Sequence record: PP925829.1 | Strand: one strand, 5' to 3' | Source: Escherichia phage IdasGreatGrand | Length of the DNA stretch: 47,946 nucleotides | Shown here: piece by piece, positions 24,732-26,250 of the stretch | Layout: each line of letters begins with the position of its first letter | Numbering within the stretch: the stretch's first letter is position 1 | Notes under the pieces: model-generated | Seen by the model: only the letters and a program-made list of their open reading frames with translations | Database searches by the model: none | What the model was told of the DNA's origin: nothing | Program-made: the position numbers and the translations under genes

Positions 24732-24808
24732 CAAGTGTCAAGTCTGCGGTGACTTAATTAAACAGCATACTAAGTTATATAATACTAACATCATAAATGT
24801 TAATTATT

Positions 24809-25231
24809 TTAACCATTCATAATCGTGACCATTATTAAGTCACCAAATGCATTTATTATCGATGATATGATTATAATGATAACACCCCATAGAATATTCC
24901 TTGATACTGCACGACCTTTTTCAGAGGTTGAGGTGACGCTCCCATCTTGTTGTACCGAACCAAAACTAAATGCTTCTCGCCTTGATAGGTAGATACCTTC
25001 TGCAAAAAGCGGAGAAAGAGTAAGCAATGTGCCAATCATTATGCCTAAACATCCGAATCGGGGAAGAAGTGACCAATCATTTTCTATATATGCATATATG
25101 CAACCACATATCATTAGCACCAACCAGAAGGCAACCATTAGCTTCTTGTTTGCAAGCCATTTTAAATAAGGATCAAGCAGATGTTTATCATCTTTGCTTA
25201 TTTTCGTTGTCATATATCCTCTATTATTCAA
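24809..25231 (-). CDS. hypothetical membrane protein (2-3 predicted TM segments)
   Basis: Hydrophobic stretches in translation; AT-rich codon usage; alternative start MTTKISK at 25213. Confidence 0.5.
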   Translation of the reverse strand: MNNRGYMTTKISKDDKHLLDPYLKWLANKKLMVAFWLVLMICGCIYAYIENDWSLLPRFGCLGIMIGTLLTLSPLFAEGIYLSRREAFSFGSVQQDGSVTSTSEKGRAVSRNILWGVIIIIISSIINAFGDLIMVTIMNG

Positions 25232-25609
25232 AGTGTATTATATCTTAACAATAAATAACTCAGATTTAAGTGAATGCTCGAGTTTAGCAATTCTTCCCCT
25301 CCTTCTATATTTTTGCTACCTACGGTATCCAATAGCTTACCTACCCAGCCTCTTGCAAAACTGGTGACGAATCATAACCGGTTCGGATTACATCTAGTAC
25401 TCTATATCAGTTAATTTATAAATAACTTCGTGTTGCTCTATGCAAATTAATACAATCAATTCTTGCGTAAGTGCCTCCACCTGATCCAGTTATCGTCCTA
25501 CCGCAATTGGGATTTTATGTGCACTGTATCCCAGTAAAAATTATGAATACATTATAGACAACAGAAATAAAAAACCCAGAGCCAACTGGGTTCATATGAG
25601 ATTTTTTTG

Positions 25610-26104
25610 TTATTTCCAATTGCAAGACTGTGAAATTTTTTCCACAACCTTATCAATCTCAGACAAGTCAAACTCAACTACTTGCATAGTTGATCCATAA
25701 GGTTCAAACCCAAAAATAGCTTTTTTATGCTTAGCCAAGGTCTTTATAAATTGTATTGGTTGTGGAGCAAATGCAGAATCACCGCCTTCCCCACCTCCCC
25801 AAACACTCTTGACCGGCTTTCCGCCATCTAACCGCACTGTAATTCTTGGGTTGTCCGACCCCATATAATCATTGAATGATAAATAGGCATCTGTTTTGTT
25901 ATCACTACAACGCAACACCAGTGAAGTTGCACGATCAGTACCTGCTTTGTTATATGAATCTGGTGATAAGTTAAGAGCCACAAAGTCAGTCTGGTCAGTC
26001 ATTTTATTTATCTCAGACTTTGTTATCCACGGCCCTAACTTCTCTACACCAGCATTTGCTGTAAACGAGGCACTTATGACAAAGGCTAAAATAAATTTTC
26101 TCAT
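25610..26104 (-). CDS. hypothetical secreted protein (signal peptide, two Cys)
   Basis: N-terminal signal peptide MRKFILAFVISASFTANA; no family recognised. Confidence 0.55.
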   Translation of the reverse strand: MRKFILAFVISASFTANAGVEKLGPWITKSEINKMTDQTDFVALNLSPDSYNKAGTDRATSLVLRCSDNKTDAYLSFNDYMGSDNPRITVRLDGGKPVKSVWGGGEGGDSAFAPQPIQFIKTLAKHKKAIFGFEPYGSTMQVVEFDLSEIDKVVEKISQSCNWK

Positions 26105-26250
26105 AACCCTATCTCCTTGGATTCAAAGAACTAAATATTATCAAGTCTCTTGCCACTAGAAAACCCACTTTACTACCAAACTCTGACGGCATTCCTGAAA
26201 ATTCGGTTCATACTCACTTGCCCCGCCCTATCATCCTGAGTAGCTAACCG

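Follow-up and report, generated by a model that had tools for sequence, protein, structure and literature searches.

Two AT-rich accessory cassettes, apparently acquired separately, in the ren-ninB slot of the lambda-like Escherichia phage IdasGreatGrand

The subject of this study is an AT-rich stretch (24735-26250) of the genome of Escherichia phage IdasGreatGrand (PP925829.1), which carries a gene for a secreted protein and a gene for a small membrane protein next to an unusually short ren. The window, i.e. the whole stretch of 47,946 nucleotides (nt) that was analysed, is a complete lambda-like genome of the DLP12 type in circularly permuted form. Its minus strand carries the tail, head, lysis and replication genes together with Q and nin, and its plus strand the repressor, recombination and integrase genes; J, at the right end, runs on into the tail genes at the left end. 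In lambda the gap from ren to ninB measures 73 nt; in the window about 3.5 kb of cargo lies between the two genes, with the replication gene P as the left anchor of this slot in gene order. The ren open reading frame (ORF) of 57 codons, the ORF for the secreted protein of 164 amino acids (aa) and the ORF for the membrane protein, listed at 140 aa, share the minus strand with P and nin (Table 1). The G+C fraction (GC) is 0.32-0.43 across approximately 24700-26200 versus at least 0.50 on either side. By segment it amounts to 0.39 in the 164-aa ORF, 0.36 in the intergenic region and 0.37 in the membrane ORF, against 0.54 in P and 0.494 in the whole window, and 24735-26156 taken together has a GC of 0.37. 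A preliminary description made from the letters alone had noted an AT-rich stretch with two ORFs on the early-gene strand, which is borne out by the GC profile and the ORF list, and a 57-codon ren whose start overlaps the P stop in an ATGA, which is equally correct. Each of the two ORFs has a conserved protein family behind it, which rules out chance ORFs.

Table 1. Features in and around the ren-ninB slot (positions of the window; strand as given by the analysis).
Feature	Position	Strand	Remarks
Replication gene P	26421-27122	-	233-aa ORF; 'replication protein P' in the 99%-identical E. coli S21 locus
ren, 57-codon allele (N-terminal winged-helix part of Ren)	26251-26424	-	TAA in place of lambda Ren Tyr58
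Decayed ren 3' remnant (codons ~58-89)	26157-26250	-	94 nt; 1-nt deletion near 26196/26197
Module A (moron unit: promoter, Shine-Dalgarno, ORF, terminator)	~25533-26156	-	similarity boundary at 25533
Extended -10 promoter-like element TGATAATAT	26135-26143	-	consensus and conservation; predicted
Shine-Dalgarno AAGGAG of the 164-aa gene	26113-26118	-	8 nt before ATG; read from the sequence
164-aa VasI/TagO-domain protein	25610-26104	-	signal peptide residues 1-18; invariant Cys66 and Cys161
Intrinsic terminator of module A	25563-25593	-	terminator scan; 8-bp stem plus T run; RNAfold -11.4 kcal/mol
Module B	24735-25532	-	membrane gene plus flanks
AT-rich non-coding spacer, 5' end of module B	25243-25532	-	only in the three E. 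coli genomes with module B
TATAAT, perfect -10 hexamer	25237-25242	-	23 nt before ATG; no convincing -35; predicted
134-aa three-helix inner-membrane protein	24809-25213	-	orphan prophage family; listed as 140 aa from TTG at 25231 (24809-25231)
3' flank of module B	24735-24808	-	GC 0.27; ends at the ylcH-like linker repeat
Linker copy, 108 nt	24623-24730		direct repeat, 86% identical to 22620-22727; marks left edge of module B
Promoter match, 10/12	24451-24480		by the isrK/C4 module
isrK small RNA	24370-24442	-	60.7 bits
C4 antisense RNA	24260-24345	-	72.7 bits; a1/b1 target at 24405-24457
Antirepressor, 202 aa, Bro-N + P22_AR_C	23605-24213	-	after isrK/C4

In every sampled E. coli carrier the genes follow the same order, namely P, the 57-codon ren, the 164-aa gene, variable cargo, a short ylcH-like linker and ybcN/ninB. 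The variable cargo consists of a HEPN gene with a hypothetical gene, of a 108-aa and a 181-aa gene, of a single 66-aa gene, of nothing at all, or of the membrane gene with its flanks (module B). The window has the membrane gene, followed by an isrK/C4/antirepressor module. In this lambdoid (DLP12-like) phage the stretch is a slot for changing cargo, in which the first cassette stays the same and the second varies. That this slot varies is already known from the DLP12-like prophage PhiR34_1, which carries emrE-ybcK-ybcL cargo right after ren. PhiR34_1 and the window have the backbone and the insertion site immediately after ren in common, and they share the downstream genes ybcN-ninE-ybcO-rusA-ylcG-quuD-ompC; PhiR34_1 differs in its cargo and in a full-length ren (100 aa), where the window has the 57-codon allele. 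The equivalent of the linker in related prophages (loci L002 and L029-L032) is a 33-aa 'hypothetical protein' directly before ybcN, and the linker is likely the recombination joint that bounds the slot. In the window it is duplicated on either side of a block comprising isrK, C4, the antirepressor and a 118-aa ORF, which suggests that recombination at the linker shuffles cargo. In E. coli strain 10 (L002, 3818-4614) a HEPN-domain gene overlaps a hypothetical gene in the slot after the TagO-like gene; the two look like a toxin-antitoxin or defence pair and show that the slot takes cargo of the defence type.

A survey of 5426 complete E. coli genomes indicates that the AT-rich stretch is composite. 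Its full extent is held by two genomes only, S21 and H14 (99% identical), and similarity to at least 80 other E. coli prophages begins at window position 25533, covering just the 164-aa gene, ren and P. The 164-aa gene region (module A) was found in 84 genomes, always beside this 57-codon ren, and module B in three, one of which is a degraded prophage remnant that has kept the same junction. Of the 84 E. coli genomes with module A, 81 lack module B, as does every sampled module A locus of Klebsiella, Salmonella, Enterobacter and Pantoea; a VasI-like neighbour of module B family genes was never seen at the other sampled loci. The junction at about 25533 and the unlike counts argue for two independent modules, and at the level of sequence the ren-ninB slot is filled by two AT-rich accessory cassettes that were acquired separately. 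The single insert of the preliminary description is contradicted by these counts, by the separate promoter-like and terminator signals of the two units and by the occurrence of each gene alone elsewhere.

The short ren has a history of its own. Its codons 1-57 share 88-95% nt identity with the ren genes of lambda and PhiR34_1, the stop codon plus 26157-26250 shares 62-63% with intact ren, and beyond 26156 the identity of about 30% is that of unrelated DNA. At codon 58 the TAC of lambda (Tyr58) reads TAA in the window. Three-frame translation of the remnant yields RLATQDDRAGQVSMNRIF and then, in the shifted frame after a 1-nt deletion, FQECRQSLVVKWVF; at these positions lambda Ren reads YRFATREEREGKMSTNLVFKECRQSAAMKRVL. 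Megablast alignments with hundreds of intact ren alleles reach window position 26180, past the ren stop, and in related genomes the Prokaryotic Genome Annotation Pipeline (PGAP) annotates the same 269 nt as a ren pseudogene ('frameshifted; internal stop'). Given this stepwise drop in identity past the stop, ren is closed by a point nonsense mutation at codon 58 together with the 1-nt deletion, and the foreign DNA starts at about 26157 and not at the ren stop. A full-length ORF homologous to lambda Ren (96-100 aa) is not present at the locus, which has 57 codons, a TAA and a frameshifted remnant. An insertion truncating ren, with the gene ending where the base composition switches, had initially been proposed; neither part holds, as the 3' remnant is still there behind a nonsense codon and a frameshift and AT-rich DNA proper begins about 95 nt downstream of the ren stop. 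The 57-codon ren is intact, with the same stop, in all seven prophages compared, and its ratio of non-synonymous to synonymous change (pN/pS) is about 0.28, i.e. more synonymous than non-synonymous change in this small sample of seven. It matches phrog_7054 (57 positions) over the full length and phrog_142 (the Ren family) over positions 11-65. By these comparisons it is a stable allele rather than a recent accident.

Module A has the layout of an autonomous transcription unit. The predicted -10 element conforms to TGnTAnnAT and lies 30-37 nt before the ATG; it is kept in E. coli, Klebsiella, Salmonella and Pantoea copies whose flanks are unrelated, and in the Enterobacter copy TAGGAT is kept with the TG displaced by one base. 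The invariant positions of TGnTAnnAT are exactly the critical -12, -11 and -7. An equivalent GC-rich hairpin with a T run stands right after the stop codon in every homologous cassette, so that across contexts the order is the terminator of the preceding gene, TGnTAnnAT, Shine-Dalgarno, ORF and terminator. Prophages of Salmonella, Enterobacter and Pantoea have the cassette among their tail genes, where some 58 nt separate it from the TMP_3 tape-measure gene that follows, and in Klebsiella prophages it sits in the same tail region, near the tape measure, among accessory genes including antirepressor-type ones. This shows cassette A to be mobile between two phage positions, one after ren and one in the tail module.

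Morons are defined as transcription units in their own right that pass from phage to phage by horizontal transfer (PMC3594210), and the anatomy of the cassette together with its second phage position fits the definition given there. Insertion between normally adjacent genes, a terminator of its own, deviant GC and varied positions are all found for module A, which, on its sequence, reads as a self-contained, textbook moron. It shares with the HK97/lambda-type morons (HK97 gp15, lambda bor and lom) an autonomous cassette between genes that are adjacent in relatives, a deviant composition, varied positions across phages and a predicted envelope location of the product; it differs in having no sequence or fold relation to HK97 gp15, Bor, Lom or Cor. 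The initial description was largely right as an observation, and its view that the ren-ninB slot holds moron-type cargo, gained by horizontal transfer and equipped with expression signals of its own, is right in kind and supported here.

The product of module A begins with a signal peptide of regular n-h-c structure (MRK, FILAFVISASF and TANA/G, cleavage at the slash), as had been recognised before; its residues 1-17 have a predicted local distance difference test score (pLDDT) below 50 in the structural model. We collected 25 homologues with 55-81% identity from Escherichia, Salmonella, Enterobacter, Citrobacter, Klebsiella, Pantoea and Serratia, over which the two cysteines and many other columns are invariant. 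The pN/pS of the gene is 0.11, and at the sequence level both families, secreted and membrane, are shown to be under purifying selection. In Pfam the protein reaches VasI (PF11319) marginally, with 26.7 bits against a gathering threshold of 26.5, over profile positions 78-184, which correspond to its C-terminal approximately 110 residues. The same domain is matched by 25 of 25 homologues (best E 4e-9), and a search with the family profile reaches a protein named VasI by its source (E 3e-9). The NCBIfam equivalog TIGR03360 stays below its cut-off (14.4 versus 124.2 bits), NCBIfam as a whole giving nothing but sub-threshold noise. It is probably from the PF11319 match that RefSeq took the name 'type VI secretion system-associated protein TagO'. 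No type VI secretion system (T6SS) gene was found near any of the approximately 25 inspected loci, all of them prophage early or tail regions, and a T6SS context for module A was rejected; among the more distant PF11319 proteins, too, there are chromosomal ones that occur singly, outside T6SS clusters. With a borderline domain match and no T6SS context, the 'TagO' label is probably misleading in prophages. A review of 2026 (PMC13584744) lists TagO/VasI itself as a protein of unknown function.

With VasI/TagO (PF11319, TIGR03360) the window protein has a homologous C-terminal domain of about 110 aa and secretion in common; it differs in being shorter, in leaving the N-terminal part of the profile unmatched and in never standing beside T6SS genes. 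Its modelled fold resembles that of IalB, the product of Bartonella invasion-associated locus B (PDB 3DTD), at a sequence identity of 9% and in another host clade and genetic context. The Pfam IalB model was not matched; with limits of E 1 for the window protein and E 0.1 for its 25 family members, PF11319 was the only hit. The protein matches phrog_1848 (function unassigned), a fold search of BFVD returned only uncharacterised phage proteins, a sequence-profile search of the PDB gave nothing for either family, and a Pfam scan of longer family members detected no fused domains. The 164-aa protein is a distant, weakly assigned relative of VasI/TagO whose modelled fold is beta-rich and IalB-like.

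The membrane protein of module B is most likely 134 aa long, because a GAGGA Shine-Dalgarno precedes the ATG at 25213, the homologues measure 131-137 aa and PGAP gives 134 aa. Of the '140-aa protein with 2-3 hydrophobic segments' in the preliminary description the segments stand, at three helices, and the length probably does not. Hydrophobic helices lie at approximately residues 23-45, 53-74 and 102-132 (23-44, 47-70 and 98-133 according to AlphaFold2), and the charge distribution suggests a topology with the N terminus inside and the C terminus outside. Two stretches are near-invariant among the 42 homologues, the second helix (RFGxxGIMIGTLLTLSPLF) and the motif SSxINAFGD, and the window ORF is 98% identical to the S21 copy. 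The family is small: a search of 1.84 billion proteins yields 60 representative clusters at E <=0.001. The protein has no PHROG, PADLOC or PDB match and no significant BFVD match, and Pfam searches with it and all 38 family members gave scattered, inconsistent matches only. A holin was considered and rejected: the position between ren and nin is remote from the lysozyme gene (~16915-17412), the C terminus (...GDLIMVTIMNG) is uncharged, and no holin model of Pfam or PHROG is matched. Small multi-helix inner-membrane exclusion proteins such as lambda RexB, P22 SieA/SieB, T4 Imm and HK97 gp15 offer a functional analogy only. Like the window protein they are encoded by accessory genes of temperate phages; homology to them is not detectable, and the window family is often coupled to a theta gene, whereas they are not.

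Members of the family sit in early operons (nin-equivalent or pL) of many Enterobacterales prophages. At 10 of 15 sampled loci, from Enterobacter and Pantoea (L005-L014), the family gene overlaps by 4-8 nt a gene for DNA polymerase III theta (HolE/Hot-like, PF06440, phrog_1105), in pR-side as well as pL-side operons. In other phages the membrane gene and the theta gene are a conserved pair without a described function. The family gene stands alone in E. coli, in Citrobacter and in one integrase-proximal island, and neither a theta homologue or remnant nor homologues of the 79/84-aa and 129-aa neighbour genes were found anywhere in the window. The TATAAT of module B is kept at the 77%-identical stand-alone homologue locus (L015), and similarity between the flanks of the two copies is confined to about 60 nt ahead of the ATG and about 70 nt past the stop codon. 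The spacer 25243-25532 contains no conserved ORF, Rfam gives no match inside 24735-26250, and no clear terminator of module B was found before the linker repeat. The L015 copy is also the closest non-identical homologue, and its setting may be recorded here: it lies in a degraded island by proBA (L015/L016, 4458-9782) with an integrase fragment on one side and two Psu-family genes on the other, next to a SMEK_N/DUF2326 set with a PADLOC match of the Aga_REase type (E 5e-42). The setting recalls the psu-int defence hotspot of P4-like satellites (PMC9122126). As the element is degraded and its gene order ambiguous, we do not count it as evidence.

On balance we lean towards the following reading: two independently acquired cassettes occupy a variable slot, and the products of both are accessory, located in the envelope and of advantage to the prophage. 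The 164-aa protein would be exported by Sec and cleaved after ANA, leaving a mature protein of about 146 aa in the periplasm that is probably held by one disulfide (Cys66-Cys161); the signal peptide, the two invariant cysteines and the low pLDDT of residues 1-17 point to this location. Both proteins would be dispensable factors made in the lysogen, and during lytic growth N- or Q-modified polymerase would read through both genes. Their likeliest job would be to modify the cell envelope to the benefit of the prophage, and an envelope-level role such as superinfection exclusion is plausible. For module A the leading guess is that the protein would block the delivery of incoming phage genomes in the periplasm; for module B it is that the protein would act from the inner membrane as an effector of exclusion or abortive infection. 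The frequent linkage of cassette A to tape-measure genes recalls the way in which exclusion genes that block receptors are placed next to the tail genes they correspond to. A connection of the two genes with ren and Rex exclusion is positional only.

Several observations weigh against this reading. PADLOC models match neither the 164-aa nor the 140-aa protein, and the literature search returned nothing that characterises either family, a prophage VasI/TagO protein or a ren-ninB defence hotspot. The tape measure of the window itself is of the lambda type (TMP_2) and not TMP_3, so that a model of self-exclusion tied to the tape measure does not transfer simply. IalB has been linked to host-cell invasion and not to phage exclusion, and the promoter candidates are consensus matches whose -35 is weak or absent. 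The theta overlap hints at a role other than exclusion for the membrane protein, and with the theta partner missing the window copy could be a functionless leftover. For module B an exclusion or abortive-infection role and a theta-linked replication role are about equally unsupported.

A bolder version of the exclusion idea takes the protein with VasI domain and IalB-like fold as a new class of exclusion factor that blocks tape-measure-dependent delivery and, separately, the membrane-theta combination, translationally coupled in many prophages, as an unrecognised early-function pair. A periplasmic block of this kind would explain why the cassette is so frequently linked to tape-measure genes. 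We regard this version as speculative and unlikely.

Other readings have to be set against our preferred one of two accessory envelope cassettes. Module A may encode a lysogenic-conversion factor in the manner of lambda Bor and Lom or of Bartonella IalB, active in adhesion, invasion, serum resistance or stress tolerance and not in sensitivity to phages. The sources of its carrier genomes (wastewater, soil, frogs, poultry, cattle and humans) reveal no bias towards a pathotype, the molecular mechanism of IalB is not known either, and the resemblance to IalB is as low in sequence as given above; we rate a conversion factor as rather unlikely. As to module B, it may be a replication-tied early accessory that works with the theta-like protein, the window copy being an orphaned half and possibly inert. 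The short overlaps on both the pR and the pL side fit such a pair, as does the window itself, where theta is absent and the similarity to the closest stand-alone locus breaks off at the linker. This reading nevertheless looks improbable to us, for the gene also occurs alone in several settings, the window ORF is intact and nearly identical to the S21 copy, and it is not obvious how a membrane protein of three helices would connect to the polymerase core. A T6SS accessory or immunity factor, which would aid the host T6SS or guard against incoming effectors, is a further candidate for module A. The PF11319 match of the window protein and of every family member speaks for it, as does the named VasI reached by the family profile. 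Immunity proteins against periplasm-acting effectors are typically periplasmic, which would suit the predicted location. The PF11319 score, however, exceeds its threshold by just 0.2 bits and over part of the profile only, the TIGR03360 score is far below its cut-off, T6SS genes are missing from the surroundings of this gene and other PF11319 proteins likewise stand outside T6SS clusters, and the function of TagO/VasI is itself listed as unknown (PMC13584744), which makes this candidate distinctly improbable. That both genes form one two-component system of periplasmic sensor and membrane effector brought in by a single insert, as the preliminary description implied, is very unlikely: the genes are adjacent on the same strand with a similar AT-rich composition and their junction is kept in three E. 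coli genomes, but module A is alone in nearly all of its genomes, module B family genes elsewhere have no VasI-like neighbour, and a terminator and about 380 nt lie between the two genes.

The window carries further cargo outside the two cassettes. An immI-like module on the minus strand (23605-24457), whose parts are listed in Table 1, comes immediately downstream of the membrane gene. The linker repeat is overlapped by an 85-aa ORF (24477-24734, minus strand), which is unannotated in the S21 record and matches phrog_4612 (E 1e-19) with its hydrophobic C-terminal half. The 118-aa ORF (22787-23143, minus strand) is a full-length match to phrog_12412; both PHROGs have no assigned function. In the b region after the integrase gene, a candidate two-gene defence system (37432-39896, plus strand) comprises a PtuA-like ATPase of 525 aa with AAA_15/AAA_21 domains (PADLOC PDC-M01A, E 2e-201; PtuA, E 1e-184) and a 296-aa partner (PDC-M01B, E 6e-113). 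Right after the gene for the cI-like S24 repressor, in the position of lambda rexAB, a 357-aa ORF (29837-30910, plus strand) matches the candidate defence family PADLOC PDC-M11A (E 2e-133) and no Pfam domain. Between the nin and lysis genes (17817-20576) there are an AraC-type regulator (246 aa), a 2-thiouracil desulfurase/DUF1722 protein (YbgA-like, 319 aa) and, on the opposite strand, a lipocalin (174 aa); the same trio is present between Q and the lysis genes in strain 2018-05-2CC.

Seen soberly, the two cassettes are ordinary moron cargo in a known variable slot, and both families are already in databases, with function unassigned or under a borderline name. The practical value of our results is modest and lies in documenting the ren-ninB slot, in revising the 'TagO' label and in correcting the annotation of ren, which is a point-mutated 57-codon allele and not a gene cut by an insertion. 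If the secreted protein did prove to be an exclusion factor, it would give a first functional handle on the VasI/TagO domain of T6SS clusters. It would also represent a compact, self-expressing periplasmic exclusion factor in approximately 1.5% of complete E. coli genomes that is widespread in Klebsiella, Salmonella, Enterobacter and Pantoea prophages as well, and it would bear on host range in phage therapy.

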